Source: an uncultured cyanobacterium
GTDB lineage: Bacteria; Cyanobacteriota; Cyanobacteriia; Cyanobacteriales; CAWUOF01
Length of the DNA stretch: 64,000 nucleotides
Direction: 5' to 3'
Assembly (NCBI GenBank): GCA_963744145.1
Contig: CAVUSO010000001.1
Location: 2,816,001 to 2,880,000 of the forward strand
Each line of letters starts with the position of its first letter. Within the stretch, counting starts at the first letter, position 1. The notes beneath the pieces are model-generated. The model was not told the DNA's origin. It saw only the letters and a list, made by a program, of their open reading frames with translations, and ran no database searches. The position numbers and the translations under genes are program-made. Shown here one piece after another: positions 2,491-64,000 of this stretch.

Positions 2491-3309
2491 TTAATCTGAG
2501 TCATCATCACCCCAAATTTCATCTAACTTGTCTAGCAACTCTTCTGCTAAATCTTGCAGGTCACTTTTGTCGGAATCATCAAACTCTCCTTTATCCATAA
2601 TAGATGTTCCACCTCGGGAAACAAGACCTTTTTCTGTGGGTAGATAACTAGCTAAAAAATCCCCACCAGCATAGCGTCGCTCGTATTTGTCATGGGTGCG
2701 ATATATTCGTTCCAATTGAGCAGCAATCTCTGAAATTGGCTGATCTGCTAATCTTTCCCTCACTTTAATTGCTATTTCGTCCTCACTTTGCAAAAAAATC
2801 TGTGCTGATTCTAAGCGATCGATATAATCAATGAATGTTTCGATTGGTTGAAGACTAGCAATTTCTATTTCTTCTGGTGGTGCGTCTGGATCTATAGTTG
2901 GAGAAAATCCTAACAACTGCACTTCATGTACGGGTGTATCGCCATACGCCCCTTCTGGGAATTGAACACCAATATAGGCAATTCTATCTTCAGTTACCTC
3001 GATCGGTAGAGAAATAACAGTTTCTCCTGGTAAAACCGGACGACATTCTAATTTCCCCAAATTGGGAATCACCAAATCAGCTACATCCAGGATAGCGCGA
3101 ATCCCAGGATGCCAACTTTCACCTTGATTTAAGTCTGTGTCTATTTCCATCCACTCCAGAAAATTATGCACCATATAGACTGCCAAGGTGTTAAAATAAA
3201 CTCGTTTACCTTTTGCTGGGGTGGCTTGTTCTGAGGCAAATTTACGCGCTATTTCCTGATATTGTTGAGGAATAGCAATAGTTAGAAAGGAATTTTCTCT
3301 GGTATTCAT
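2491..3309 (-). CDS. DUF1822 family protein
   Basis: FASEQATPAKGKRVYFNTLAVY, DVADLVIPNLGKLECRPVLPG, DRIAYIGV...LLGF motifs typical of cyanobacterial DUF1822 N-termini. Confidence 0.85.
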   Translation of the reverse strand: MNTRENSFLTIAIPQQYQEIARKFASEQATPAKGKRVYFNTLAVYMVHNFLEWMEIDTDLNQGESWHPGIRAILDVADLVIPNLGKLECRPVLPGETVISLPIEVTEDRIAYIGVQFPEGAYGDTPVHEVQLLGFSPTIDPDAPPEEIEIASLQPIETFIDYIDRLESAQIFLQSEDEIAIKVRERLADQPISEIAAQLERIYRTHDKYERRYAGGDFLASYLPTEKGLVSRGGTSIMDKGEFDDSDKSDLQDLAEELLDKLDEIWGDDDSD

Positions 3310-3311
3310 TT

Positions 3312-4142
3312 TTATTGATCCTGTTGGTATCCAAAATTTTTAGCAATCTCTCTCAGAAGAGGTAAACATCTTCTTTTCCAGTGGGAATTGAGAGCTTGGT
3401 AGTTCACATTAAATTCCTTGGCAATATCAGATAGCTTGTCTGGTGGATCTTTTAATTGTAATCTTTTGGCTAGTTCTTGACAGTTAGCGTTAGGGTGTTC
3501 TCTAGGATGACAACTTTGCAGTTCTCCTTCTGGATCTTCCTCTATATACTGCCACAACCTTTGACCAATTTGTTGTGTTTCTTGTTTAATTAGCACATCT
3601 ATACCCGTGGGCTTTTCTGTCGGAACTGTACCTATATAAGTCTCTCCATTTTCACTGGGAAGAGGAACATCTAGAGACAAAGGCTGAATTTTAAAACGGC
3701 GGTAGAGATCAATGATTTTAAACTTGAGAATTTTATTGAACCACGTAACAAAATCTCTGATTATTTCCAAACTAGCATCATTGATATCCAAGTTTCTCTT
3801 TTGGACAAACTTACGGAGATGGCGATCGCTAATTTTTGCTTTTTCTTGATCGCTAATTTTTACTTTGTCTAAAGAAATAGCTTCGAGAGCATCATTGAAA
3901 GCCTCTTGGTAGTTAATTCGTTGGTCGGCTGAGTGGTATATACCTGGAAGTTGCGGGATCAGCGTTAATAGCCCATTCATAGCCTGGTTTTGCTCTGGAC
4001 TACCATTTTGATAGGTAAGCACCTCTTCAATCCGTTGGCGGAGTTGTTCATTCATGCGAGCATTTATGAAAAAAGGTATGCTTTCCATATTATCAAGAAA
4101 GCATCCCTCACTTGCGACTTTACCCATTTTCTTAAGCTGCAT
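3312..4142 (-). CDS. Sigma-70-like / HTH transcription regulator of the type encoded next to DUF1822
   Basis: TWFNKILKFKIIDLY (region-2-like), SLDVPL, C-terminal YIEEDPEG...LSDIAKEFNVNYQALNSHWKRRCLPLL HTH. Start uncertain (4142, 4088 or 4055). Confidence 0.75.
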   Translation of the reverse strand: MQLKKMGKVASEGCFLDNMESIPFFINARMNEQLRQRIEEVLTYQNGSPEQNQAMNGLLTLIPQLPGIYHSADQRINYQEAFNDALEAISLDKVKISDQEKAKISDRHLRKFVQKRNLDINDASLEIIRDFVTWFNKILKFKIIDLYRRFKIQPLSLDVPLPSENGETYIGTVPTEKPTGIDVLIKQETQQIGQRLWQYIEEDPEGELQSCHPREHPNANCQELAKRLQLKDPPDKLSDIAKEFNVNYQALNSHWKRRCLPLLREIAKNFGYQQDQ

Positions 4143-4428
4143 CGCCTAAATCGCCTCCAGGTTGCTGATTTTCCTCTTTCCAGTTGCGATTCCCTTCCTC
4201 ATACGGTTGCTGGGCTGCAATTAGATCCTGCTCACATTGTTTAATTTGCGTCCCATAACGGTAAGCGATCATCTTTAAATCTTCTGTTAAAACCTCTTCC
4301 AACTCAGCACTCTGATCTTGGACCCATTGCTGACGTACTGATGGGACAAGATGTGGCCAGCGATCGACCATTTGCCAGAGATAAAGTTGATATTCATCAT
4401 TATGATCAGACTGGTTGAAATTCATCAT
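4132..4428 (-). CDS. Small acidic hypothetical protein, first gene of the sigma-like/DUF1822 operon
   Basis: 98-aa ORF overlapping the next ORF by 11 bp on the same strand. Confidence 0.6.
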   Translation of the reverse strand: MMNFNQSDHNDEYQLYLWQMVDRWPHLVPSVRQQWVQDQSAELEEVLTEDLKMIAYRYGTQIKQCEQDLIAAQQPYEEGNRNWKEENQQPGGDLGDAA

Positions 4429-4732
4429 TGCTTGGGTTGTTTTGTGCTTACAACCTTTAGTCGTTCAAGTGGTGAGAAATTATGCAACTTTTTTTTGAAT
4501 GTGGGACAGGATGCCCTATAGTTCAGTTAAGAGTATTTTGGGGGATATGGGCGAAGAAGAGTTTACCCGCTCGCGGAATCAAAGGGTAGTTGAATGGGGC
4601 GATCGCGTAGCGTACCGTAGACATCAGCATTCGGATTTAACATTACAACGGATTCGGTGGTTCATGAAGTACAGTAAGATTTGGCACGAATAGCGATAAG
4701 TTAAAGTTAATTGTGATTGATCTGTGTTGGTT

Positions 4733-4791
4733 GGGCGGGTTTATGATGTTGATCTATTTGTGTCAGAATTAACTGGTGAACCCGCCCCTAC
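4733..4791. repeat. REP-like inverted repeat (GGGCGGGTTT...AACCCGCCCCTAC)
   Basis: Inverted arms; the same family occurs at 4846-4978 and 63437-63497. Confidence 0.75.
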
Positions 4792-4845
4792 AAATCCTGG
4801 TTTATTGTCATCATAAATTCATTGACAATACATTTTTATGATCTC

Positions 4846-4978
4846 GTAGGGGCGGGTTCACCGCTGAATTTGCCACACACAAATAACTCTTGTGCCGAGC
4901 GCTTGCCCTGAGTTTATCCTGAGCGTAGCCGAAGGGCGTAGTCGAAGGGTAGTCGAGGTATTGATGAACCCGCCCTGC
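4846..4978. repeat. REP-like inverted repeat carrying triply nested 24-bp micro-elements
   Basis: gtaggggcgggttcacc...gatgaacccgccc arms; nested elements at 4892-4960. Confidence 0.75.
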
Positions 4979-5155
4979 CTCACAGATCACCTTGATGAAC
5001 TCTTGTGTCGAGCCTAATCGAGACATCACTCATCTGGCATTACAGACAATATTGCTATACTTCATAAACAGGTCATAGGTTGTAAACCCGCTCAACCAAA
5101 CGAGATAACTGACTGTACTTCATCAACGGGTCATCCGCTGTAACTGACCTGAAAA

Positions 5156-6607
5156 TTACCCATTTTTTACATCAACATAAATATATTTACCATACTGTTT
5201 AAATTCATCATCTTTATCCAATAAATTTCGGATAGCTTGACGAAGTTCTTTAGCTGGTAATAGACAATCACGCTCGTAATCACTTAAGGTTAAATTCAGA
5301 TCAGGGTACAAAATCTTGAGAAAACCTGCGGCTGATTTAATAATAGCATTTTCATCTCGAATATTGACTGTCTTTTTATCAAAATTAGTATGTTCGATCG
5401 CATATTGTTTAAATTGATTTTCTTGGCGTAAAGATAGCAAGACTTCACCAAAAAAATCCATCTTCAATCCAATTTGAGATGCGATCATATCTTTCTGGAA
5501 TTTGGGAATTTTCCATCCAGGGATAATTCCAGCAAAGCGATCTAAAAAAGCTGTTTCATCCAAAAATTTAGGCAGTGTGGAAAGTAAATTGTTTTCATTA
5601 AAGGGGAGTAGCTGTTCGTTTAATTCGATATTAGCGAGCATGACAAAAGAGCAGTCACTCGCAATATCTTCATATCCTCCCCGATTATAACGACCATTAG
5701 CAAGATAATTTTTTAGTGGACCAATCATTTCACTGGGGTTGTCAAACCTCAGACTCTGAACTTCATCTAGAATTACTGCATCATAACATCCTAGTAAACC
5801 TGTTTCTTTGGTTTTACCATTAAAAAAAAGTACCGCTGGTCCAATTTTTCCGCCACTTACCAATTTGATTTTGTTACTGATATTTTCAAAAAAAAAGCTT
5901 TTACCTGTTCCTTTGGGAGCTAACTCCCAAAGATGGTAATTTGGTTCTACTAATGGTAATAGTCGAGCTAGCACCCAGGTTTTTGCGTCGTAAGTATAAT
6001 CGGGATGCTCTGGATTAAAACCCATTGAACAAAATATTAAATCTCGCCATTCTTCACTACGGAAACGTGAGCGATAATTCGCATATTCTTTCAAATCTAC
6101 ACTAGAACATTGGAATGGATCAAAATCCATTACTTGGATTTTGCCATCATTGTTCATAGTTAAACTTATTTTGCCCCAAATCCCTTGACGGAGTAACCGT
6201 TCATAACGTTCAACTAGATCCTTAGAAATCCGACAGTCATCAAAACTTAAAATAGGAATAGATGCTACGGGTTCGGGAATTTCTTCTTTGGATTTTTGTA
6301 ATTTTACTCGAACTTGCATTGCGGCAATTATTTTAATTACTTCTCCCTGGGTTAGACGGTATTTGAAAACTTCTTTATCGTTTTTGCGTGGGAAAGCTTT
6401 TTGAATAAAATTATCTATTTTTTCCTGTTCATTTGGGCTGAGTTTCCCAGTTCCTGGTACAATTTTATCGAGTAGCCATTCAGCTACGAAACTTGGTACT
6501 CCCGTAGCTGTTAGACCACTAGAAGGTAAGCGAGTTTTATCTATACTCAGAGAGCCAAAAACATCGCGAACAAGAGTGTTGTTATATATTGATTCAGGTA
6601 AATTCAT
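5156..6607 (-). CDS. brxL: BrxL-like MCM/AAA+ ATPase lacking the C-terminal Lon protease domain
   Basis: VPSFVAEWLL, RLLPLVEPNYHLWELAPKGTGKS (Walker A), YDAVILDEVQ (Walker B), ETAFLDRFAGIIPGWKIPK; only 483 aa. Confidence 0.85.
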   Translation of the reverse strand: MNLPESIYNNTLVRDVFGSLSIDKTRLPSSGLTATGVPSFVAEWLLDKIVPGTGKLSPNEQEKIDNFIQKAFPRKNDKEVFKYRLTQGEVIKIIAAMQVRVKLQKSKEEIPEPVASIPILSFDDCRISKDLVERYERLLRQGIWGKISLTMNNDGKIQVMDFDPFQCSSVDLKEYANYRSRFRSEEWRDLIFCSMGFNPEHPDYTYDAKTWVLARLLPLVEPNYHLWELAPKGTGKSFFFENISNKIKLVSGGKIGPAVLFFNGKTKETGLLGCYDAVILDEVQSLRFDNPSEMIGPLKNYLANGRYNRGGYEDIASDCSFVMLANIELNEQLLPFNENNLLSTLPKFLDETAFLDRFAGIIPGWKIPKFQKDMIASQIGLKMDFFGEVLLSLRQENQFKQYAIEHTNFDKKTVNIRDENAIIKSAAGFLKILYPDLNLTLSDYERDCLLPAKELRQAIRNLLDKDDEFKQYGKYIYVDVKNG

Positions 6608-8798
6608 CGATATTTAATCTACTTTGGAAAATTCGATTGATCGTAATAGAAGATGTAGGTTCTAGTGAACAAATCCCTAGTTCGGTGTGATTAAAACGAA
6701 ATTGCAACTTACCAGAGAGAAATAGCTGCTTTTCCCTTTGGGAAATTGGCAATTCGGGCCAATTCGCAATTTCTAGGTCTAAGGTAATTTTATCCTGAGC
6801 TGTAATTTCCGCATCAAGATATTTTCCTGCTTTCAAATTCGGTAATTCATTGATATATAAATAAAGGTCTGTAATGGACACGGAGTTGGGATTATCAATA
6901 GTAATTTTTAAGGTTCCTGTTTCGTTGGGTTTACCCTCTCCAGAACAAATAATAATAATTGGGTATCGCTCTACCAAAAGACTCAGTACCGAGACTCCCA
7001 CGACGACTTCTTCCGGAAATAATCCACCATGAGTTCCTATTGCTGATCCATCCGTGGTGTTGAACGAACCTAAACAAGCAGCATCTCTAACTATACTAAC
7101 ATCATGGGGGAGACTAAAGCGACCAGATTCTAAGACAATAAATCTTGGATCATTAGTTTTTCCGATCGCCATTCTACCTTTTGTAGTTATCTCTTGTGGA
7201 GCATCCTTAAGGGTTTCTACTGGACCAATCATTTGTCCATGATCGCTGGAGATCACTATTTTTAAGTTTTCCGGATTAGGGTGTCGTTTGAGACAATATC
7301 CTATTTGTTTAGCAATACCTTCTAAGGTATGGGGACGTTGAACCTGATCAAGATTTTGCCAGTTACGTTCACTATGGTAAATATCATCAAGTTGATTTGT
7401 ATCCCAGCAATAAAGCTGATGAGCATTTTGCTGCAAATCTTGATCAAGATGGTGACGTTGTTTGTCTGTGTAACGTTTACCAATTCCGATTAGAGAAAAA
7501 GCTTTGTTAATTTCCATATTCCAAGATTCATGATCGGGAAGTAATTGAGAGTAAAGACTCCATTTTGCGTATTCCGTTTTAGTTGGCAAAATGCTGAATC
7601 TCCCAGAAATATCTGTGGTAATTTTTAAATTGTTTTCCTCGGTCAATATTTTGAGCAATTCTTGGTGATCTAGCCATCCTAATCCATCAATTACTACCCA
7701 AAAAACAGGATTTTTTTGACAAAGTTCTTTGACTAGATAGGTAACATTGTAGTTTAATGTTGAATGACTAACTGAATCTAGTTTTAATTCTGGGTAATGT
7801 TTAAATAGCCACTCTAGAAAGGTATTTGCTAGACGATCACTTAATCTTTGTCCAATCGGAGATTTTTTGATAGCGATCTCCCACTTACGGAATGGTAAAT
7901 AACTTTTTGTTACCCATTCTAGTACATCTGAGACACTGGTTTCTAGTGCTAGAGGTTGTGGTTGAGATGGTGGTTGTTGATTATTTAAGTCTATCCGCTG
8001 TTGGAAATTCAGGTAAGCAGAAATTTTGGCGATCCTTTCTTTGGTAATCCAGGCTGTTTTTTTGGTTAAGATATTACTAGCGATCGCTGCAATTCGTTTT
8101 ATTCCTGGTTGCTCATGGGGAACGATCGCATCTAAAATTCCTCCTTGAGTTTTGAGGATCTGAGCATTCCAAAAATTGTCAAATTCTGAGGCTAAAATAT
8201 CAGGAATTTCCCGAGGATAAACCGGAAGTTCTTTAATTGGTGGTTCTAATAAACCCAACCACTGTTTGAGAAAAATAAGTTTATCATTGGTCTGGTAATA
8301 ACTAGCTAGTTCTAGATTTAATGATTGAATTTTATTTTGCCAAACTTGCTCAAAAAATTGGTATTTTGATGGTACTTGTATAGATAACCATCGACTTAAA
8401 TGCTCAATTGATGGTGGTTCAAACCACAAATTATCACTATCGGTGGTTATTTCTGATAGAAGATGAGCGATCGCATTATCTACCGGATAAGGCTCAAGTT
8501 CTATCACTAACTCTAAGATTTGTTTATCATCCCATTCTGACGGTAAAGGTAAGGGGTTAAATATTGATGCTAATTTCAACCGAGGGTGTTGTTTTTCTTC
8601 AACGATCGCATCAGTTTTGTCCCAAATGTACAGCCATTCACGAGTCCAATCACACAGTAATTTACCTTGAATCCAGTAAGCGCAGTTATCCTGAAAAAAG
8701 AATTTTAACCATTCTACTTCTGTAGTAATGGGAATATAACCATCAGGGATTTGATAGAGTCTAGTTGGATCTAAAATAACAGATTTAACCCTCGCCAT
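6594..8798 (-). CDS. pglZ: PglZ-domain (alkaline-phosphatase superfamily) protein
   Basis: WVVIDGLG, SILPTKTEYAK, VISSDHG, THGGLFPEEVVVG motifs, followed by an Ig-like C-terminal segment. Confidence 0.88.
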   Translation of the reverse strand: MARVKSVILDPTRLYQIPDGYIPITTEVEWLKFFFQDNCAYWIQGKLLCDWTREWLYIWDKTDAIVEEKQHPRLKLASIFNPLPLPSEWDDKQILELVIELEPYPVDNAIAHLLSEITTDSDNLWFEPPSIEHLSRWLSIQVPSKYQFFEQVWQNKIQSLNLELASYYQTNDKLIFLKQWLGLLEPPIKELPVYPREIPDILASEFDNFWNAQILKTQGGILDAIVPHEQPGIKRIAAIASNILTKKTAWITKERIAKISAYLNFQQRIDLNNQQPPSQPQPLALETSVSDVLEWVTKSYLPFRKWEIAIKKSPIGQRLSDRLANTFLEWLFKHYPELKLDSVSHSTLNYNVTYLVKELCQKNPVFWVVIDGLGWLDHQELLKILTEENNLKITTDISGRFSILPTKTEYAKWSLYSQLLPDHESWNMEINKAFSLIGIGKRYTDKQRHHLDQDLQQNAHQLYCWDTNQLDDIYHSERNWQNLDQVQRPHTLEGIAKQIGYCLKRHPNPENLKIVISSDHGQMIGPVETLKDAPQEITTKGRMAIGKTNDPRFIVLESGRFSLPHDVSIVRDAACLGSFNTTDGSAIGTHGGLFPEEVVVGVSVLSLLVERYPIIIICSGEGKPNETGTLKITIDNPNSVSITDLYLYINELPNLKAGKYLDAEITAQDKITLDLEIANWPELPISQREKQLFLSGKLQFRFNHTELGICSLEPTSSITINRIFQSRLNIDEFT

Positions 8799-8815
8799 AA
8801 ATCAATCAAAACCCC

Positions 8816-11800
8816 TTAATTTGGCAAATATTCTTTGAGTAGCTCATAGACACTGAGTTTTTCTTCAGGTGGGAGTTTATCAAACAGCTCAATTATTTGA
8901 TTAGCTCGATTTTCTTTTTTCTTTTCTTCACTTTCTTCCTGTATTTTTTGATTATCTGGATTATAATGTGAAGGATTTGTTCTTACTTTTCCTTGACTTA
9001 CTTGACTAATTGGTTGTGATATATTAGCATTATCTTGCAGTTTTCTTAACTCTTCTATTCTTTGATGAACAACTTTTTGAGAATCATTTAATTTTTCAAT
9101 TAAATAAGCTAAATTTGGAATTTTCTTAATATATTCAAGATATTGTTTTAATTCAACTTCATAAGCACCACAATCTTTTTCTGTATTTAGAAATTTAGCG
9201 CGTTGAGTTAATTGGTTAATAATTAGCTCAATTTTACCCATTACCATTTCTAAAGCTTTAGATTGGCGATCGCGTTGCTGCTGACTGGGAGTGACATTAA
9301 TAGTTCCTGAAATCAGTACAATTGCTGGGGGTTGACCTAGGGATCTGTAAATATTTACTAATTCCGCAATTCCAGAATTAGGGTCTAGAGTTTCTGCTTT
9401 TTTTATGGATTTAAACCATGTGTCAATTTTTTTTATTCCATCTTGTAGTTGTTTTTGCTTTTCCTTAATTTCACTAATTTTTTGGCTATCAGTATTTCCT
9501 AGCTTTAAAAAAACATCAATCTGGTCAATATACTTTTCGGCACTATCGAAATCTACAGAATCGGGAATTTCTGGATAGGGAGACGGTTGACGACGAATTA
9601 ATTCAGGTTTAGTCGTCAGTATCCATTTGTTCACAAACTCTTTCGGTTTATCAAGGATATTCGTATTTGCCCAATCATTGATTGGTTTTATTTGTATTGA
9701 AATTTGCTCGGTTTTATTTTGAGCAATTCCAAAACGCCCTCTTAAATAAATTTCATTACGGTGATAAGCAAGCCATGCGGTAAAAAGGATAGTAAAGGTA
9801 AACTCGTTATAACCATAGGGTGGACTGGATAATTTATCCCAAATTGTAGCAATATAAACCGATTTTTCCTCATATTTACTACCCAATTTAGTCATTTTGG
9901 AAATTTCATCCCAAGCGGAGCGAACTTTCTGATTATTTGGCTCTTGGACTAAATATTTTTTAGAGGTTTTTTTGAGCAATCCCCAAGCAGAAACAAAAAT
10001 CGGGTCAATTAAGTTATTGTACTCTTTACCAGGTAAATTTTCAGATAAAGTATCTAGTAAAAGCTGTTTAGCAACAAATCCGAGAATTTTTGTTCCCGAT
10101 GAACTTTTTAGTGCGATCTTATCTATTTTTTCAACAGGTGGAACCAGTGAGTAAAGTTCTTGTAATAAAGCGCTAACCAGACGTTCTGGTTTTTTCCGGT
10201 CAGCTAAAGGTAGTTTTTGACTACCATAACTATGATAAGTACAGTTGTCAAAAATCTTTTTCAATCCTTGGTCTATTTGCTGTTGGATCTGTTCTGTAAA
10301 TTGGGAAAAAGCTTCACCATAGTTTTGCTTTTGGGCTGAAGTTTTCTCATTCAACTTATCCCGCTTGAGCAGCAAATGAGCAATATCCATAGCTCCTTGC
10401 TGAGGAATTGCTACAGAGATTTGAGAACGGATAGAAGATTCGATCAGTAGTTGATCAATTTCGTCACGAAGTGGTTTTAATTCTGTTTCTGTTTCTGCCA
10501 AAACATAAGCAAATATGCCTTTTGCTGGGGTTTCTTGTAAAGTTTTATCTCTTAATAAAGCTTTTTGAAATCCATTAATCGAATAGATTTTATACTCAAA
10601 TTGCCACTCATCGCTAATTAATTTGTTTTGGTCTACAAATTCCATAGCAGTAATTGTAGTCGCTTTGAAATATTCTTCTAGATGTTCTCGGCAATAAATT
10701 AAAACTTGATCAATGGTAGGCTTTTTTCTATTATAATATTTATCTTCTGCTAGTTCCTTGTCTATTTCTTGCTCTAGGTCTAGAATACTAAATCCGGAGT
10801 AGAAACTATAGGTGTTATTAGCAAGTTTGTATATAGCTCGTCTATTATTACAAAGTTGGTCGAGAGCAATTTTAACTTTCATTTCCGATAAACCAGTTAA
10901 AACACTCAATATCTCTTCATGTTTTTCACCGTCTGGTTTAGTTAGTTTGCTACCACTAATATAAAATAAGAAGATGGCTTTTAACAAGGTAATTTCTTCA
11001 CTTGAAGCTGCTCCAATTACTGAATCAAAAGCTTTTTTATAATCTGTGTATTTGGAGTGATTAGAAAAATTATCAATAAAAGCGTCAACCAGTACCACTG
11101 GACGAATATAGTTGAGTTTTCCTTCGATTTCTACTGGCTCATTTTGAATAAAGTTTCTGACATCATACTTAACAAACTGAATCGCTGTACGTCCTTGGGT
11201 AAAGTCCAAATTACAAAGCAGATAAGCGGTGAGAGGATGGAGGGGAAAACATTTGGAAGCAAAATCATGATGGAATTTTTTAAAATCCCTTTTTCCTTCG
11301 CGATAAAAGGTAATTCGTTTCTCACAAGCAGTTCTACTTTCATCTAATAAAGTGCTATTCCATCGATCGCGAAACTCTTCCCAAACTGTGGGATTTTCCT
11401 GAACAATTAACTTAGAAAAAACTAACTCTAAACTAGAAACAGGTTCATAGGTACTGCGACTCAATTCCAGCCGAGAAATTAATTTTTTGTAACTTTCTAT
11501 TTCTTTAAAATTGCGGGGAACTGCGGCTGCATTTGATGGTTTAATTTGAGTGAAACTGATCAGGGCAATTCGTCCCTTGTGGTTTTCACAAAAATTAGTT
11601 ATATTTTGCAAAGCCATTCCTCCCGCTGTTGCAGGGTTGCTTGCCCAATTTTGTAGATAAGCATTAAGTTCATCTAACAAAATTAAAATCCCTGCAAACT
11701 GGGGATTTTTTCCAGAGCAAAGCTTTTTGAGCAAATCTTCAAGAATATCCTCTAAGTCTAAATTTGCTTCAAAATTAATTGCATATCCACCGATCGTAAA

Positions 11801-12475
11801 TTGACGACTAATATCGATGACTGTAGGAATAACGTGATAGTTATCATGTCGCAATAACTCAATCATCGATTCGATATCACCATAAGGATTGTCGATCTTT
11901 TTTAAATATTTTTCAGCTATTGCAAGCTGTTCAGTATCCAGTCTTTCCAAAAATTGTAGGGGTTCACTGCAAAATCGCTGGGCAATAGAACCACTCACTC
12001 CTTCCGTTTCTAGGGTTTGACGTAAAGAGCGCAGAAAATTCTGTTTCAGATCACCGCGATCGCCACTTAAACAGATCACTAAATGTTTTGGATTTCGTTG
12101 TTTATAAGCTTGTAAATCTGCTAAAATTGCCGGATATTCAGAAGTAGCTAACCGGATTTGCTCTAAAGTTCCCTGCACTTCTTTACTTTCATAAGGCTGT
12201 TTAAAAAAGTTGGCCAGGACTAACCCAAAGTGAGATTTTCCTTTGCCATAGTCTTGAACTAAGAGGTGAACATTTGGCTCATTTTGACTATGGTAACTAC
12301 GCCGGACAGCATCAAGAACTCCCACCGTCGATGATTTTAGATTTTTCTGATCATAATTAAACACAAATCCTTGACAAAGCTTTAAATTTTTCTCCTGATC
12401 TGCGATCATATCGAAATTGACAGCATCAGCTAATAGGGCAGTTTCATTAATTCGGACTAAATTATTTAGTTTCAT
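8816..12475 (-). CDS. BrxC/SspC-like large P-loop ATPase with coiled-coil C-terminus
   Basis: HLLVQDYGKGKSHF (Walker A variant), ILILLDEL (Walker B), CFPLHP and SSPPYG motifs; 1219 aa; operon context. Confidence 0.8.
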   Translation of the reverse strand: MKLNNLVRINETALLADAVNFDMIADQEKNLKLCQGFVFNYDQKNLKSSTVGVLDAVRRSYHSQNEPNVHLLVQDYGKGKSHFGLVLANFFKQPYESKEVQGTLEQIRLATSEYPAILADLQAYKQRNPKHLVICLSGDRGDLKQNFLRSLRQTLETEGVSGSIAQRFCSEPLQFLERLDTEQLAIAEKYLKKIDNPYGDIESMIELLRHDNYHVIPTVIDISRQFTIGGYAINFEANLDLEDILEDLLKKLCSGKNPQFAGILILLDELNAYLQNWASNPATAGGMALQNITNFCENHKGRIALISFTQIKPSNAAAVPRNFKEIESYKKLISRLELSRSTYEPVSSLELVFSKLIVQENPTVWEEFRDRWNSTLLDESRTACEKRITFYREGKRDFKKFHHDFASKCFPLHPLTAYLLCNLDFTQGRTAIQFVKYDVRNFIQNEPVEIEGKLNYIRPVVLVDAFIDNFSNHSKYTDYKKAFDSVIGAASSEEITLLKAIFLFYISGSKLTKPDGEKHEEILSVLTGLSEMKVKIALDQLCNNRRAIYKLANNTYSFYSGFSILDLEQEIDKELAEDKYYNRKKPTIDQVLIYCREHLEEYFKATTITAMEFVDQNKLISDEWQFEYKIYSINGFQKALLRDKTLQETPAKGIFAYVLAETETELKPLRDEIDQLLIESSIRSQISVAIPQQGAMDIAHLLLKRDKLNEKTSAQKQNYGEAFSQFTEQIQQQIDQGLKKIFDNCTYHSYGSQKLPLADRKKPERLVSALLQELYSLVPPVEKIDKIALKSSSGTKILGFVAKQLLLDTLSENLPGKEYNNLIDPIFVSAWGLLKKTSKKYLVQEPNNQKVRSAWDEISKMTKLGSKYEEKSVYIATIWDKLSSPPYGYNEFTFTILFTAWLAYHRNEIYLRGRFGIAQNKTEQISIQIKPINDWANTNILDKPKEFVNKWILTTKPELIRRQPSPYPEIPDSVDFDSAEKYIDQIDVFLKLGNTDSQKISEIKEKQKQLQDGIKKIDTWFKSIKKAETLDPNSGIAELVNIYRSLGQPPAIVLISGTINVTPSQQQRDRQSKALEMVMGKIELIINQLTQRAKFLNTEKDCGAYEVELKQYLEYIKKIPNLAYLIEKLNDSQKVVHQRIEELRKLQDNANISQPISQVSQGKVRTNPSHYNPDNQKIQEESEEKKKENRANQIIELFDKLPPEEKLSVYELLKEYLPN

Positions 12476-12499
12476 TTGATGGACCTGATTATCAATAAA

Positions 12500-12928
12500 T
12501 TAAATATGAAAAACTCGCTGACGCGGCCAATTTAGTGGTAGAACTTTAGCTGGCAACAAAATCCAAAGCACTGCTTCTAAATGTCGCAGTTCTGATAATT
12601 TTTGCCAAAACAATTCCATCGGAAATGTAGATTGAACAGATAAATAAGTAATCAGATAATCTAACTTTTCCAGAATTATCGTTCTATTATAGTTGGTTGC
12701 ACAGATTGAGCGAATAGCATTAAATTCTTCGTCTAAGCGCTGATGAAGCACCAAAAATTGGTGAGAGCTGAGACGAGTGAGTAAGTTTTGCCGATAGCTA
12801 ACCCGTATAGCTTTATTATCACATAAAAGAGACAATAAATCTACCTCCGTAGGATTGTCCCATAGCAAAAGATGGGGACGATCCTCTGGTTTTGCGTCTG
12901 GAAGTTTCAGATTAGGGTTGATTTGCAT
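12500..12928 (-). CDS. Small BrxB/BrxF-like (inactive P-loop-like) protein
   Basis: 142 aa, alpha/beta pattern with IILEKLDYLITYL. Lies between the HTH gene and the ATPase; overlaps the upstream gene by 17 bp. Confidence 0.5.
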   Translation of the reverse strand: MQINPNLKLPDAKPEDRPHLLLWDNPTEVDLLSLLCDNKAIRVSYRQNLLTRLSSHQFLVLHQRLDEEFNAIRSICATNYNRTIILEKLDYLITYLSVQSTFPMELFWQKLSELRHLEAVLWILLPAKVLPLNWPRQRVFHI

Positions 12929-13745
12929 AAGCTTTTTCTAGAAGAGTCAGAGAGTTATCCCACCGACGTACTATTTGAAAAGGGGGAACTGTGCGACGCT
13001 GTTCAATCAGTCCATAGGCTTCCAAATTGTTAAAATGCTCTTGTAAATCATCGGTGCTAATTCCTAAAATAGTCGTTAGTCCCATTGGTTGATCGACAAC
13101 CGCTTTAGTTAACACTGAAGTTTGGGTTTTAAAGTCCCGTTCCCAAAGTTGGGCAAGAAAATAACCGATCATATAAACATTGGGAAGATTAGCGTTACCT
13201 GTTTGATATGTATCATTTTTATTTAATTCAATAAAACGACAAGATGCTAAGGCTTGAGTTTCTGTATAAGCTCGCAAAATATATTTCAATCTTTCTGTAA
13301 TTATTTTTTTAGTTTCTTCAAAAACTGTGGTACTATTTTCGATCAGTTCATTCATAGTAAACTGACGATGCTGTGGTAAAAAACTATGGACAAAATAACA
13401 CCATCCTCCCCAATCAGCCGGATTTTTTGGTAATTGTTTCATGTTTCGTTCCCCAAAACTCAAATAAAAGTGCATCAACCAGTCTGTAATGTTTGTCTGT
13501 AAAAATGAATCTAGTCTTAACACTATTTTACCTTCTGGGGTTGGTCGATTATCTTGAATTAACCCTGCTCGAATTGCCCAGCTTTTGATCTGTCCAACTT
13601 TTGCATTACCTAAACTGGTTCTCTGCATTAAGTTTTCTAAAGTATCATTTAAACCTTTTTCCTCTGTAGCTGTCTGAAGAATTCTGCGGATTTCTTCTTT
13701 TTTGAGAGCGAAATTTCCGTGAAAGTGCATTTTCAAGTTAGCCAT
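12912..13745 (-). CDS. DUF4007/SspB-like winged-HTH protein
   Basis: MHFHGNFAL, LGNAKVGQIKSWAIRAGLI, TDWLMHFYLS. The likely start is ATG 13745; the longer ORF-track start runs through the MITE. Confidence 0.75.
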   Translation of the reverse strand: MANLKMHFHGNFALKKEEIRRILQTATEEKGLNDTLENLMQRTSLGNAKVGQIKSWAIRAGLIQDNRPTPEGKIVLRLDSFLQTNITDWLMHFYLSFGERNMKQLPKNPADWGGWCYFVHSFLPQHRQFTMNELIENSTTVFEETKKIITERLKYILRAYTETQALASCRFIELNKNDTYQTGNANLPNVYMIGYFLAQLWERDFKTQTSVLTKAVVDQPMGLTTILGISTDDLQEHFNNLEAYGLIEQRRTVPPFQIVRRWDNSLTLLEKAYANQP

Positions 13746-13788
13746 AATTATTTGCCGTCTAAATATGTAGATCACTACTATTATATTC

Positions 13789-13922
13789 CAATACAGTTCA
13801 GTTAAGAATATTTTTGGGGATATCGGCAGAAGAAGGGTGAAGCATTCGGATACAATATTACTGGTTTGATCGCTCAATTATCGCCCGAATGCTTCACCCC
13901 TACATTTAACTGAACCGTATTG
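13789..13922. mobile_element. 134-bp MITE with 17-bp TIRs and a 10-bp target-site duplication (resembles Nezha-type cyanobacterial MITEs)
   Basis: Left end CAATACAGTTCAGTTAA, right end TTAACTGAACCGTATTG (1 mismatch); flanked by TATTATATTC at 13779-13788 and 13923-13932; internal hairpin GGGTGAAGCATTCGG...CCGAATGCTTCACCC. Confidence 0.9.
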
Positions 13923-14267: not shown

Positions 14268-17200
14268 GTGCCTACCAATATGGACAGTATTATAGACTAC
14301 CAACTAACTGAAAAAATCTACGAAAGTCCTAATTCAATAGTTTATCGAGGCACTGACCAACTCAATAAACAACCAATTATTCTGAAAATTCTTCAGGAAA
14401 ATTACCCTACTCCATCAGAACTAATCCGATATAAACAGGAATATGAAATTACTCGTTGTTTCCATGCCGATCGCATTATTAAAACCTCCGGATTACAGCG
14501 ATATAAGAATAGTTTAATCATCATTTTAGAGGACTTTGGTGGTAAATCTTTAGACCGATTAATATCCGAATACCAGTTTAGCTTAGAAGAAACTCTCACT
14601 ATTGCTATTAAGATTACAGAGGGTTTAGTTGCGATTCATTCTGCTAACATTATCCACAAAGATATTAACCCTAGCAATATAGTCTATAATCCAGAAACTG
14701 GACAACTGAAAATTATTGATTTTGGAATTTCTACCCGTTTATCCCAGGAAAATCAGACAATTAATCATATCAATCAATTAGAAGGAACCTTAGCTTATAT
14801 TGCGCCAGAGCAAACTGGTAGAATGAACCGAGGAATAGATTACCGTAGTGATTTTTATGCTCTGGGTGTCACATTCTATCAAATATTGACCCATCAATTA
14901 CCGTTTCCAACCCATGACCCGATGGAATTAGTCCATTGTCAGATCGCGCAACATCCAAAAAGACCTGATGAACTAATCTCGTCAATTCCCTTAACATTAT
15001 CCAATATCGTCATCAAATTGTTAGCTAAAACTCCAGAGGAACGATACCAAAGTGCTTGGGGAATTAAAGCTGATTTAGAAACCTGTCTGCACCAATTAAA
15101 AACTTTCGGAGAAATTTCTCAATTTTCTTTAGGAAACCAGGATATTTCCAATAAGTTTCATATTTCTCAAAAACTCTACGGTCGAGAACAGGAAATCACT
15201 CAACTATTAAATTCCTTTAAACGAGTTAGTCAAGGTACTACAGAGATGATGCTGGTTTCTGGTTATTCAGGAATCGGTAAATCTGTTTTGGTCAATGAAA
15301 TTCACAAACCGATTACTAAACAACGAGGATATTTTATTAATGGCAAATTTGACCAGTTGCAGAGGGATATTCCCTATGCAGCAATTACTCAGGCTTTTCA
15401 AGATCTAATTCGTCAACTTCTGAGTGAACCGGAATCAATCCTAGAAACTTGGAAAGAGAAAATATTATCAGCATTGGGGAATAATGGTCAAATTATCATT
15501 GATATTATCCCTGGTCTGGAAAAAATTATCGGTAAACAGCCGGAAGTTGAACAACTAGGAGCAAAAGAAACTCAAAATCGGTTCAAATTATTATTTGAAA
15601 AATTTATCGGCGTTTTTAGTCAAAAAGAACACCCCTTAGTTATCTTCCTCGATGATTTACAGTGGGCAAATCTACCATCTTTAAATTTAATTGAGGGATT
15701 AATAACTAATGCTAATCAGCAATATTTATTGATGATCGGAGCATATCGCGATAATGAAGTTAGTCCTGTTCATCCTTTAATGCACACCTTAGCACAACTT
15801 AGAAAGGTAGAAGCTACAGTCAATCAAATTATCCTACAACCATTAAAAATCAGCCAGATTAACTTATTAATTGCTGATACCTTAAGTTGCTCAATAGAAG
15901 ATGCAAAACCTTTAGCAGAGCTAGTAGCCAAAAAAACTGGTGGTAATCCTTTTTTTGTCAACCAATTACTCCAAACATTGTACCAAGAAAACCTCTTAGT
16001 ATTTAATCCGCCACAATTTTTAATAGCTCAGGGAGAAAATAAAGAGAAATTTTGGCAGTGGGATATTGACCAAATTGAAAAAATCGGCATAACTGATAAT
16101 GTAGTTGATTTAATGGTTAGGAAAATTGGAAAGCTGGATGAAAACACCCAGAATATTTTAAAATTAGCTGCTTGTATTGGCAACCAATTTAATTTAGAAA
16201 TTCTTGCTGTTGTTAATCGAAAATCTCAAATATTTACTGCTCAAGAACTACAACCAGCACTTGCTGAAGGATTGATTGTTCCCCTAAATAATGACTATAA
16301 ATTACCCTTGCTATGGAGTCAGGAGGAAATATCAAGTGAAAGCTCATCTGTTTTTATTCCCAAATATCCTGAGTCTATTCCCTATAAATTTTTACATGAC
16401 CGAGTCCAGCAAGCTGCTTATATTCTCATTAGAGAAGAAGAGAAAAAAGTTGTTCATCTGCAAATAGGTCGTCTGCTACTGAAAAATACTCAAGCAGATA
16501 AATTAGAAGAAAATCTTTTTCAAATTACTAATCAACTTAACGAAGGAGCAGAGTTAACTACTGACCAATTAGAGCGAGATGAGTTAGCTATATTAAATCT
16601 TAAAGCTGGTAAAAAATCTAAAGCATCAACCGCCTATAAACCAGCTCTCAGATATTTGGAAACTGGCTTAAGTCTATTAGCATTTAATAGCTGGAATGAC
16701 CAATATAAATTGACCTGGGAATTACAGATAGAGACTTTAGAACTGCTTTACTTAAATACTAAATTTAAGGAATTTGAAGAGCGAGCAGAAATGCTGCTGG
16801 AACAAGCAAAAGAGATCCTTGATCAAGCTAAGGTAACTCAGTTAAAAATAATATACTGTTATACAATATTTAAGCCTGATCAGGCAATAGATATCGCCCT
16901 TAAAGCTGTCCTAGAACTGGGAATAAATATCTCTCAGGAATCCAGTGACATCGAAAAGAGAATTGAGCAACAACAAGAATTTATTCTATCATTTTTGCAA
17001 TCAAAAAAGATTGAGGATTTAGCTGATTTACCGCTCATGACCGATCAAACTAAAATAGCTGCAACCTCAATCTTACACCGGATTCTTACAGCTACAAATA
17101 CAACAAATTTTTCTTTATATATTGAGGTAATGTTTACCATACTTAATCTCTATATCAGCTCTGGAAATTCTCCTAACGCAGCTTGTATATATGCTACTTA

Positions 17201-20200
17201 TGGAGCGATTTTGTGTACTGTAAAAAAATATATTAATTATGGTAATCAATTTGGAAAACTGTCTTTCAAGCTACTAGAAAAATTTAATACTCCTAAATTA
17301 GAGCCTGTGATTATACATTTATATTATGGAGGTATTTGGTTTTGGCAAGAACATCTCAGGAATATCGTTGCACATAATCACTTAATACATGGATGGAAAA
17401 CCGGGATAGATGCAGGAGAAAATGAATATACTTCTTATCTAGCCCTAAGTTATTGCTTAATCAAGTTTTTCGGTGGATATGATTTGGCAGATGTTGAACA
17501 AGATGTAAAAAAATATTCTAATTTTATCAAAAATTTAAACCAACAATATTCTCTATATGCTATAGAAACAATTGATAAAATAGTAACTAATTTCTTGATG
17601 ATAAACAAGGAAAAAGGTTTAATTATTGGTAATTCTAGAGAAGAGGAGGAAACATATTTAAAGATTTGGAATCAAGCTAATAACGTCTGGCTAATGTTTT
17701 TTGTATTTTTTGGTAAAACAATTTATTTTTATTATTTTAAAGATTATATTAATGCTTATGCTAACAGAATTAATGCCGAAAAACATATCCAAGCTATTGG
17801 CTCCTATTTAATAATGCCCCAGCATAATTTCTATTCATCCCTTTCTGATCTTGCTTATTATAATTATTGTGATGGAAAAAGGCAAAAAGAATTAATTGAT
17901 CAAGTAGACAGAAATCAGGAAAGTATGAAAATATGGGCTAACTATTGTCCAGCAAATTTTCAACATAAATACGATTTGGTTGCGGCTGAAAAAGCCCGAA
18001 TTTTAAACCAAAATTGGCAAGCTGAAGACCTTTATGAAAGAGCAATTCAAGGTGCTAAACAATATCAATTTATTCAAGAAGAAGCTCTAGCTTATGAACG
18101 AGCAGCAGAATTTTACTTTTCTATTGACCGAAAAGAAATTGGTCAGTTATATCTGAGAAATTCCCACCATTGTTACACTAGCTGGGGTGCTAAAGCCAAA
18201 ATTAAACAATTGGAGGACGAATATCCACAATATTTTGTAGGAGTAACCAACTCAGAGACAACTAAAAATCTTTCTACGACGATCTCTATTCCTGGTAATG
18301 ATGGAAAATTCCTCGATTTAACGACCGTCATTAAAGCATCCCAAGCTCTAACTGGGGAAATTATGCTCGATAAATTGCTAGCAACCTTGATGAAAACCAT
18401 GATCGAGAATGCAGCTGCTCAAAAAGGTTTTCTGCTGTTACCATCCCAAACTGATCCTGATCACGAAGATTATCAGTGGGCGATCGCAGCGATCGCGACA
18501 GTTAATCCTAATGAGGTGACTACACTACAATCTATTCCCATCGATACAATAGATCCTTCCACCCAAACCCCGTTCCTCTCAACTACAATCATCAATTATG
18601 TGATTAACAGTCAAGAAAATGTAGTTCTTCATGATGCTACCAATCAGGGACAATTTACTCGCGATCGCTATATTATTACCACCCAACCCAAATCTATTCT
18701 CTGCACTCCTCTACTCAATCAAGGAAAACTGAGTGCTATTTTATATTTAGAAAATAACCTCACCACCGAAGCATTTACACCCGAGCGAATTGAAGTTTTA
18801 AATATCCTTTGTAGCCAAGCCGTTATTTCGATTAAGAATGCCCAATATTATCAACAATTAACCGCATTAAATGTAAATTTGCAAGCTGAAATTATTGAAC
18901 GTCAAAAAGCAGAAGATGCCTTAGCTGAGTCCAACCGCAACCTAGAAATTAAAGTCGAAGAACGAACAGTTGAACTCAAGGAAGCAAAGGAAATTGCCGA
19001 TGATGCTAATCGAGCCAAAAGCGAATTTTTATCGAACATGAGTCATGAACTAAGAACTCCTCTCAATGGGATTTTAGGATATGCTCAAATCCTCCAACGC
19101 TCAAAAATAATCCCAGCAGAAGAACTACACCAGATTAACGTTATTCACCAGTGTGGTTCCCATTTATTAACCCTCATAGACGACATTTTAGATTTAGCCA
19201 AAATTGAAGCTCGAAAAATGGAACTCATGCCAACCGATTTTGATTTTTCTAATTTTTTGCAAGGAATAGCAGAAATTGGCAAAATTAGAGCTGAACAAAA
19301 AGGGATTTCTTTCATTTTTCAAACTACATCAGAACTACCTCAAGGCATCAATACTGATCAGAAAAGATTACGACAAGTGCTAATTAACTTAATCAGTAAT
19401 GCGATTAAATTTACTGACATCGGTGGAGTAATTTTTAAAGTTGAAAGAATTAGGACTGAACAAAAATTAATCCCATCTCCAAGCTCGAAAATTCGGTTTC
19501 AAATTGAGGATACTGGAATTGGCATGAGTCCGGAGCAATTAGAAAAGATATTTTTACCTTTTGAACAGGTGAGTGATCAGCAACGAAAAATAGAAGGAAC
19601 TGGACTAGGATTGACAATTAGTCAAAAAATTGCGGAAATAATGGGTGGTACAATTAAGGTGAAAAGTCAGTTAGATCAAGGGAGTGTTTTTTGGCTAGAT
19701 TTAGATTTGTCTGAAGTCCAGGGATGGAACCAAACAGCCATCACCTGGTCTCAAAGACAGATAATTAGCTTTAAAGGGACTAGACGGAAAATTCTAGTCG
19801 TCGATGACCGATGGGAGAATCGCTCTATGATGATTAATTTACTCAAACCAATTGGCTTTGAAATTGCTGAAGCAACGAACGGTCAGGAGGGTTTAGCCCA
19901 AACCCAAGGATTTCAGCCAGATTTAATTATCCTTGACTTGCTGATGCCCGTCCTAGATGGTTTTGAGATGATTCGACAATTGAGACGCTCCGTTGAATTC
20001 AAGCAGGTGCTGATCATTGCTTCCTCTGCTAGTGTCTACGCAAGCGATCGCGATCAAAGTCTAGCAGTAGGAGCCAATGATTTTCTTTCCAAACCAGTCC
20101 AGATCGATGAACTATTCAAGCAACTACAGAAACATTTGCAAATTGAGTGGGTTTACGAAGAAGTAGCAAAATCTAGCTTGCTCGCTTCCCCCCTAAGATG

Positions 20201-63436: not shown

Positions 63437-64000
63437 GTAGGGCGGGTTTATAATAGCGATCGGTTAGTCATAAAATTGATCGGTGAACCCGCCCCTAGGG
63501 TTATCGGCAAATATAGAATGAAATTTATGGTCAAATATGCAATGAAAATTCGCGATCGACAAACATTAAATAAAATAAATTCCCCGTAGGGGCGAAGCAT
63601 TCGGGCGATCAATAATCACTAAAGCGACTAATATTATATCCGAATGCTTCGCCCTTCTTCGCCGATATATCCAAAAATACCTTCGCCGATATATCCAAAA
63701 ATACCTTCGCCGATATATCCCAAAATATCTAAACCGTATTTCATCATAAAATTGCCCCAGCTAAACCGATCAAACTTCGCGATCGCAATGGTTAGAAACA
63801 GCGATGGCAAATATGGAATCAAACTTCGCGATCGCAATGGATAGAAACAGCGATCGACAAACATTAAATAAAATAAATTCCCCGTAGGGGCGAAGCATTC
63901 GGGCGATCAATAATCGCTACATCGATTAACATTATATCCGAATGCTTCGCCCTTCTTCGCCGAGATATCCCAAAATACCTTCGCCGAGATATCCCAAAAT
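63437..64000. repeat. Composite repeat region: REP hairpins, ~298-bp duplication, 24-bp and 49-bp tandem units
   Basis: Block starting gcgatcgacaaac at 63552 and 63850; (ttcgccgatatatccaaaaatacc)x3; caaacttcgcgatcgcaatgg at 63771 and 63820. Confidence 0.85.

Follow-up and report, generated by a model that had tools for sequence, protein, structure and literature searches.

Type 4 of the bacteriophage exclusion (BREX) systems reportedly consists of brxP-brxC-pglZ-brxL, and SspABCD is said to form, together with SspE, a defence that senses phosphorothioate (PT) marks. Here we analyze an operon of five genes, A, B, C, Z and L, which shares features with both systems and lies in a stretch of 64,000 nucleotides (C1:2816001-2880000, in the following called the window) of the 7.7-Mb, four-contig assembly of an uncultured cyanobacterium of the order Cyanobacteriales. 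The operon probably represents a BREX type 4-like exclusion cassette that would read PT marks written in trans, with writers that are unlinked. It is most likely a detached representative of a type of island that has been described only recently, and not a mark-free system.

That kind of island is already in print at the level of gene neighbourhoods (PMC12914056). The accessible sections of this paper report that brxP and brxC write PT in Bacteroides salyersiae and that brxZ and brxL are dispensable for writing, that BrxP is a fusion of SspD and SspB, and that BrxP and BrxC suffice for PT. They name 'dndBCD-brxCZL' islands in seven strains and 'sspBCDB-brxCZL' islands in 40 strains, seven of them Cyanobacteria, and they state that the anti-phage activity of such island variants awaits investigation; gene B, the slot between sspD and sspA, and the variable insert of C, all of which are treated below, are not mentioned in these sections. 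The window operon resembles the islands in that a second sspB-like gene is followed by brxC, brxZ (pglZ) and brxL, and both types recur among its relatives, where 17 of the 40 intact loci are Ssp-linked and 13 are Dnd-embedded. It differs in that the brx half of the window stands alone, 1.2 Mb away from sspBCD and 1.7 Mb away from dndCDE.

According to the accessible part of PMC12839542, type 4 BREX comprises BrxC, a phosphoadenosine phosphosulfate (PAPS) reductase, DUF4007, PglZ and BrxL, and type 4 neighbourhoods contain the PAPS reductase in 406 of 457 cases, a desulfurase in 255 and DUF4007 in 97%. The main text of that paper contains no word beginning with 'cyanobacteri', its supplements may list such taxa, and a reappraisal of the PT machinery (PMC10853773) does not mention PglZ, BrxL or BREX. 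The operon and its relatives share with type 4 a DUF4007 module, an SspC-like ATPase, PglZ, BrxL, the linkage to PT genes and a frequently adjoining cysteine desulfurase. The window thus has the BrxC/SspC-like ATPase, the BrxL and the DUF4007 of this type, but it lacks BrxP and a PglZ that is recognized by the type 4 model NF033445. DUF4007 is free-standing and not part of a PAPS reductase fusion, the relatives have a complete sspBCD or dndBCDE as a separate writer, and B is a stand-alone protein in place of the BrxB-like N-terminal fusion reported for type 4 PglZ. Judged by BrxP and the PglZ model, the operon is not a canonical BREX-4 (brxPCZL), although it would probably function in a similar way.

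Gene content and layout of the operon

The open reading frame (ORF) list of the window contains five closely packed ORFs, all on the minus strand, which remain open throughout 8.6 kb:

12912..13745, minus strand: gene A, DUF4007/SspB-like (BrxA-like) DNA-binding protein, 277 aa
12500..12928, minus strand: gene B, P-loop/AAA-like alpha/beta core without Walker A, candidate BrxB/BrxF-like adaptor, 142 aa
8816..12475, minus strand: gene C, SspC/BrxC-like ATPase, 1219 aa
6594..8798, minus strand: gene Z, PglZ phosphoesterase, 734 aa
5156..6607, minus strand: gene L, short BrxL consisting of BrxL_N and ATPase, without Lon-protease domain, 483 aa

Genes A and B overlap by 17 bp and Z and L by 14 bp, and gaps of 24 bp and 17 bp separate B from C and C from Z, respectively. 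The five proteins were scanned against Pfam, PADLOC and NCBIfam, and none of the three collections gave a match to PAPS_reduct or to a methyltransferase family at E ≤ 0.01. An earlier note on this DNA, made from the letters alone, had described five co-oriented genes with junctions of 24 bp or less, which form a BREX/Ssp-like operon without a PAPS reductase or a methylase, and this description agrees with the measured junctions and with the scans.

Linkage to phosphorothioate genes

A profile scan with one genome per species yielded 135 relatives, and the best 80 loci were examined. These 80 carry cyanobacterial titles, with the exceptions of one short Chitinophagaceae contig and four entries named 'uncultured bacterium'. 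A scan of genome contigs with the window PglZ as a single protein gave 29 pattern matches, none of which was confirmed. The ORFs of the 80 loci were labelled by BLASTP against a purpose-built reference set, and a module was called intact when A, B, C, Z and L had at least 250, 130, 1300, 700 and 470 aa, respectively, a definition which the C of the window itself would fail. The conservation of the five-gene order, a check that the earlier note had suggested, was found in half of the loci: A-B-C-Z-L is kept in 40 of the 80 and is thus not a product of chance. The other 40 loci are mostly degraded or cut by contig ends.

Most of the intact modules are physically linked to PT genes. Ssp genes adjoin 21 of the 80 loci and 17 of the 40 intact ones, dnd genes 17 and 13, and a cysteine desulfurase as the only such gene 19 and 1; no linkage was found for 23 and 9, and among the 80 many loci of the latter two classes are cut by contig ends. 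The 17 Ssp-linked intact loci have sspB/C/D/E genes immediately upstream of the module, and the 13 Dnd-linked ones have it between dndE and dndD-dndC-dndB. A cysteine desulfurase is located downstream of BrxL in 17 of the 40 intact loci. Pfam scans of the flanks placed it beyond BrxL, either directly or within about 1 kb, in eight loci of the first locus set, and in L041, L045 and L048 they revealed SspE-like proteins of the GmrSD kind between sspD and A. The orthologs in the ssp and dnd islands are 40-56% (PglZ) and 60-75% (BrxL) identical to the window proteins, and besides A and C the relatives have a complete, separate sspB-sspC-sspD (or dndBCDE). In five of the nine unlinked intact loci the sequence upstream of A ends after 2.5 kb or less; one of the five is L112, in which SspD lies just beyond the fetched stretch.

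In the Nostocales the module splits the dnd operon, as it lies in opposite orientation between dndE on one side and dndD-dndC-dndB on the other (L037, L066, L071-L078, L081, L083, L086, L091, L099, L116, L117, L119 and L134). The layout of L037 is DndE, then A, B, C, Z and L, followed by DndD, Uma2, DndC and DndB.

Among the 40 intact loci as labelled, none has a methyltransferase linked to the module, and the Pfam-scanned flanks gave only a weak Methyltransf_23 match in L043, which belongs to an opposite-strand ORF about 2 kb beyond the BrxL end of the operon. This bears on the speculative proposal of the earlier note that methylation associated with the highly iterated palindrome HIP1 (GCGATCGC) might serve as the self mark. 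HIP1 sites are indeed present in the window (one at about position 4600), but none of the results speaks for such a mark, and the consistent partners of the module are PT genes. A HIP1-based mark is therefore extremely improbable.

Phosphorothioate genes elsewhere in the genome

The genome itself encodes PT writers. A search for partner genes, as recommended in the earlier note, retrieved sspB-sspC-sspD, sspA and dndC-dndD-dndE, all of them unlinked to the operon. PF01507 matches are located at three places, C1:5.55 Mb (249 aa), 4.044 Mb (SspD, 266 aa) and 4.504 Mb (DndC, 532 aa), and the first of these frames is presumably CysH. The ssp locus at C1:4.04-4.055 Mb gives PADLOC values of 1e-124 for SspB, E=0 for SspC and 2e-111 for SspD, and 8.8 kb downstream of sspD it is followed by sspA, a cysteine desulfurase (class-V aminotransferase, 389 aa) that is 67% identical to the module-linked desulfurase. 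The genes dndC-dndD-dndE are found at C1:4.50 Mb. PglX, the methyltransferase of BREX type 1, was not found genome-wide, the best NF033452 match reaching 38 bits versus a cut-off of 500.

In Ssp-linked loci the module occupies a slot between sspD or sspE and the desulfurase gene sspA. For comparison, 12 module-less sspD loci were hand-picked for long contigs, and each of them has a desulfurase (63-88% identical) further downstream on the strand of sspD; the cassette that separates the two genes varies. A helicase and HATPase_c_3 set, with or without PLD, fills the slot in eight of the 12; L148 contains SspF-SspG-SspH (PADLOC 7e-235, 2e-194 and 0), L149 contains ORFs of the same sizes as this set, known by size only, and L154 has a different content again. 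The accessible part of PMC8092258 describes SspFGH as a PT-dependent restriction module. As the slot of L148 holds SspFGH, the five-gene module sits where known PT-dependent restriction cassettes sit. The resemblance to SspABCD with SspE or SspFGH thus consists in a PT writer and a separate effector cassette between sspD and sspA, with SspFGH in the slot of L148 and SspE preceding the module in three loci. The difference is in the effector, which in the present case is BREX-like, with PglZ, BrxL and another SspB/SspC-like pair, and is neither a DUF262-DUF1524 nuclease nor SspFGH.

Two slots have an unusual content. In L151 (G143:C1:2898700-2918600) a family-less 787-aa ORF stands beside a BrxL-like gene (63% identical to that of the window) without PglZ, A, B or C, which may be a remnant or a different pairing. 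The sspD-sspA cassette of the window's own genome (C1:4044000-4058000) encodes an HATPase_c_3 protein (592 aa), a 119-aa ORF, a superfamily 2 helicase (542 aa, PbeA-like, 3e-24), a second HATPase_c_3 protein (610 aa) and a PLD-like protein (297 aa), followed by an IS110 transposase on the other strand. PADLOC did not name this cassette SspE or SspFGH, and we regard it as a candidate for a further PT-dependent effector set.

Distribution in the order and phylogeny of PglZ

Co-occurrence was analyzed in 401 genomes of the same order, which were evenly sampled; as these genomes are kin, the counts do not represent a formal test. A PglZ match is present in 29 genomes, near-full-length with 40-56% identity in 23 (the window's genome G000 included) and as fragments only in six. 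The 20 neighbourhoods fetched from module genomes all have the order A-B-C-Z-L. At a threshold of E ≤ 1e-20, SspD is found in 58 of the 401 genomes. With the module the count is 11 of 23, two of these 11 being fragments, and without it 47 of 378. Eight module genomes besides G000 have a substantial SspD, and in all eight it is located on the same contig, 6-11 kb upstream of PglZ. A DndC-type match occurs in all 23 module genomes, although it is weak in G234, G259 and G275.

A FastTree phylogeny of 74 PglZ sequences, for which the program flags long branches and open forks, places the window PglZ in a set of 21 rows with 99% support, nine of which are Ssp-linked, seven unlinked and five linked to a desulfurase only, and none of which is Dnd-linked. 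The Dnd-embedded form is essentially one Nostocales clade (two changes), and Ssp linkage is spread over the tree.

The five proteins

The longest ORF of A (12912-13877) encodes 321 aa and begins with a TTG at 13877, and an ATG at 13745, the start taken in the earlier note, gives the 277-aa protein listed above. The ATG is the likely start, because the orthologs are 274-297 aa long and their alignment begins at residue 45 of the longest ORF. A matches Pfam DUF4007 (5e-9, 35.4-36.1 bits, cut-off 27) and PADLOC SspB with 7e-10, in comparison to 1e-124 for the true SspB of its own genome, with which it shares 23% identity across 183 aa. C lacks a Pfam match and is closer to SspC (PADLOC 6.3e-26) than to BrxC (0.0027), the true genomic SspC scoring E=0. 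Its Walker A (YGKGKSH, near residue 80) and Walker B (ILILDEL, near residue 265) motifs are conserved across 54 aligned sequences, and its similarity to the genomic SspC is confined to patches. Judged by these comparisons, A and C are distant paralogs of the genome's SspB and SspC and not orthologs.

The relationship of A and C to writer proteins raises the alternative that the operon is a split canonical BREX-4, in which A and C would borrow the PAPS reductase of another locus (SspD or DndC) and would themselves write a further PT motif, to be policed by Z and L. The window does have both halves, DUF4007 and an ATPase whose Walker motifs are intact, SspD directly adjoins A with a 56-bp gap in L039, and, according to the accessible sections of PMC12914056, the BrxP and BrxC of B. 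salyersiae suffice for PT and BrxC is required for writing. However, the relatives already own a complete sspB-sspC-sspD or dndBCDE writer besides A and C, so that the duplication fits a division of labour better, and the distance of both proteins from SspB and SspC is very large. We consider a split BREX-4 to be unlikely.

B did not match any family in Pfam, NCBIfam or PADLOC, DUF1788/BrxB included, and its consensus in a 36-sequence alignment lacks a Walker A motif. The AlphaFold model (predicted local distance difference test score, pLDDT, 87.9) is a small alpha/beta domain, whose best PDB matches are AAA+ cores, which are weak (E 3.6e-3, query TM-score, TMq, 0.4-0.5, maximum 0.49). The nearest named Atlas cluster is BrxF-like (0.77, below the lead threshold of 0.9). 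A role of B as a BrxB/BrxF-like adaptor is a lead only.

When the C of the window is aligned with 53 orthologs of at least 1300 aa, a single gap opens after its residue 1183, at a place where each of the orthologs has 137-590 residues rich in Q, E, K and L; the window C is the shortest protein of the orthologous group and the sole insert-less copy among the 54. The insert is evidently helical and has internal similarity, and its lengths cluster near 140, 190-260, 340-360 and 580 aa. The possibility that the longer orthologs conceal an enzyme domain was rejected, as Pfam was empty in six of them and the insert consists of this helical sequence. The size of C tracks the context (loci L036-L135), with 1322-1545 aa in Dnd-embedded loci and mostly 1555-1841 aa in Ssp-linked loci.

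The missing insert, together with the separation of the operon from ssp and dnd, would be in line with a decaying remnant, i.e., a cassette that was detached from its writers and is no longer functional. Degraded copies do exist elsewhere, with split or truncated genes in L044, L090, L123 and L130 and the above-mentioned fragments in six of the 29 genomes. However, the five frames with their tight junctions are open, the catalytic and ATPase motifs are conserved, and the deletion in C is a clean one that keeps the reading frame, the C-terminal 36 residues being common to the window protein and its orthologs. Decay is thus quite improbable, even more so than a split BREX-4.

Z matches the PADLOC PglZ model over its full length (1.9e-21, positions 16-696 of 726), reaches 22.6 bits with Pfam PglZ, slightly below the cut-off of 25, and remains with 33.2 bits far from the cut-off of 140 of BREX_PglZ_4 (NF033445, NCBIfam). 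The residues D371, T406, T408, D519, H520 and H590 are invariant in 16 orthologs, and in the alkaline-phosphatase fold they would be the positions of the metals and the nucleophile. When 5.8 billion proteins were searched with a profile, 155 matches were retrieved, and the named ones among them are all cyanobacterial and all annotated as 'hypothetical' or 'PglZ domain-containing'; the nearest relative is 56% identical. On the basis of these sequence searches, Z belongs to a cyanobacterial PglZ group of its own. L is recognized as BrxL by TIGR02688 (443.8 bits, 5.7e-133, cut-off 329.3) and by the Pfam families BrxL_ATPase (3e-101) and BrxL_N (4e-24).

In 19 of the 80 loci (L042, L043, L057, L058, L062, L068, L092, L093 and others) PglZ carries an N-terminal fusion of a NERD nuclease-like domain and a Ser/Thr-kinase region, resulting in proteins of 1363-1596 aa. 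The fused part matches the PglW of BREX type 2 (PADLOC 9e-68), and the fusions occur inside an otherwise type 4-like, PT-linked module. With BREX types 1 and 2 the operon and its relatives therefore have in common PglZ, a BrxC-type ATPase, BrxL and, in these 19 loci, a PglW-like fusion; they differ in that PglX is absent from the genome, B does not match DUF1788/BrxB and the PglZ of the window is unfused.

A proposed division of labour between writer and reader

We favour a scheme in which the operon, being devoid of a writer, would tell self from foreign by PT marks made in trans. The five genes together would form the exclusion, or read-and-restrict, half of a cyanobacterial BREX type 4-like system, with A as the DUF4007 DNA scanner, B as a small inactive P-loop adaptor, C as an SspC/BrxC-like ATPase, Z as the phosphoesterase PglZ and L as the ATPase BrxL. 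The writer would likely be the unlinked sspB-sspC-sspD together with sspA, and dndCDE is a possible alternative. In favour of this scheme are the linkage to PT genes in the relatives, the shared slot, the writers of the genome itself, the occurrence of SspD in the order sample, the place of the window PglZ in the tree, the open frames with their conserved motifs, and the published islands. Gene content, conservation, linkage in the relatives and the unlinked writers are observed; that the operon reads PT and restricts unmarked DNA is inferred as its most likely function.

Several observations weigh against this scheme. Four intact loci (L084, L087, L095 and L118) are clearly bare, with about 4 kb upstream and 8.5 kb downstream devoid of a PT gene, and 12 of the 23 module genomes lack SspD at the threshold used, including G168 (nine contigs) and G226 (one contig), two assemblies with a completeness rating of 100%. 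The presence of DndC in all module genomes is uninformative as a test, as it is found in 321 of the 401 genomes (80%). Adjacency alone is no proof of coupling, as defence genes cluster in islands, and the linkage may be largely inherited and the loci not independent, because the Dnd-embedded form represents one clade. In addition, the genome's own ssp slot is already occupied by another candidate effector cassette, and the window copy might be impaired, because its C is devoid of the insert kept in all 53 long orthologs.

The bare loci and the genomes without SspD, together with two further bare intact loci (L036 and L040) from assemblies with a completeness rating of 100% and the lack of a writer in the operon, would be expected from a modification-independent BREX-like defence, in which foreign DNA would be recognized and blocked by the five proteins in the absence of a self mark. 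Against it, 30 of the 40 intact loci adjoin ssp or dnd genes and one more a desulfurase, each of the 23 module genomes has at least a DndC-type match, the module occupies the slot that is filled elsewhere by SspFGH or SspE, and A and C have their paralogs, SspB and SspC, in the PT machinery. This alternative is therefore not likely, about on a par with the split BREX-4. The earlier note had left the choice between a modification-independent system and an unlinked mark; the latter was rightly offered, and the former is the weaker option, because the orthologs usually adjoin PT genes and partner genes exist elsewhere in the genome. The note had also foreseen that orthologs might consistently include a modification gene or that the partner might lie elsewhere and the locus be canonical BREX-4, and this proved largely true with regard to the PT genes of the orthologs and the partner genes in the genome, but not with regard to canonical BREX-4.

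The reading of PT marks written in trans can be taken one step further, though tentatively and with clearly less confidence. A-B-C-Z-L may be a portable, writer-agnostic PT-reader BREX cassette, which would be interchangeable in the sspD-sspA slot with SspE, SspFGH and the helicase/HATPase_c_3/PLD set, would also serve Dnd marks (in the Nostocales clade) and would work from a distant locus. If this were true, the helical arm of C, which varies in length between 0 and about 590 aa, would adapt the cassette to its writer or to the spacing of the marks.

How BREX acts mechanistically is not yet settled, and tests of the PT-linked branch have concerned only writing (brxP, brxC) and not exclusion. 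In the cyanobacterial family a complete writer (sspBCD-sspA or dndBCDE) is physically separate from a set of BREX-like reader and effector genes, and the window reveals that this set can stay intact when it is unlinked. It therefore offers a clean genetic system to ask whether exclusion by PglZ and BrxL is PT-dependent, which writer is used, and whether the second SspB/SspC-like pair is a sensor and not a writer. It is also a warning for annotation, because an operon without a modification gene is not necessarily a mark-free system.

Genes and repeats around the module

In related loci, proteins with an HNH_4 endonuclease domain (374-465 aa, some with an N-terminal HTH_3) are encoded just upstream of A (L038/L094, L039, L046/L065, L047/L133, L049/L108, L050/L088), and ORFs of 218-219 aa with a weak HSDR_N-like match directly precede A in L047 and L050; both are absent in the window. 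L038, in whose genome SspD was not found, has an opposite-strand ORF for a LAGLIDADG_2 homing endonuclease (18611-19630) between an sspC remnant and the HNH gene. MNT-HEPN (nucleotidyltransferase/HepT) pairs are located beside the module in L041 (12781-13405) and L051 (16193-16875), and their association with PT genes is also mentioned in the accessible sections of PMC12914056.

The flanks of the operon in the window do not contain adjoining sspBCD or dndBCD genes; they contain a kinase gene, a DUF1822 gene and family-less ORFs. The earlier note had seen the operon bounded by non-coding repeats on one side and a divergent kinase gene on the other, which was confirmed. The divergent gene starts at 14268 and encodes a Ser/Thr-kinase/AAA_16/GAF/His-kinase protein of 2051 aa. 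It was considered as a PglW-like partner and rejected, as its similarity (31%) to the NERD-kinase of the fused PglZ relatives is that of generic kinase domains; in the other labelled loci no kinase recurs upstream of A. Scans of both flanks for consensus promoters and terminators yielded nothing on the minus strand, the counts being at the level of shuffled sequences. Beyond the non-coding flank, the minus strand encodes a DUF1822 protein (272 aa, 1.5e-40) and two family-less proteins (276 and 98 aa) at 2491-3309, 3312-4142 and 4132-4428, for which no tie to the operon was seen in the relatives. The flank itself bounds the operon, which does not imply that it is a part of it:

4429..5155, no strand: non-coding flank with short GGGCGGGTT-type inverted repeats

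The motif GGGCGGGTTY occurs four times in this flank and six times in the whole window, versus an expectation of 0.12. The copies are located at 4733-4975 and 63440-63494 and are arranged in inverted pairs, and the motif looks like a small dispersed repeat or an element similar to a miniature inverted-repeat transposable element (MITE).

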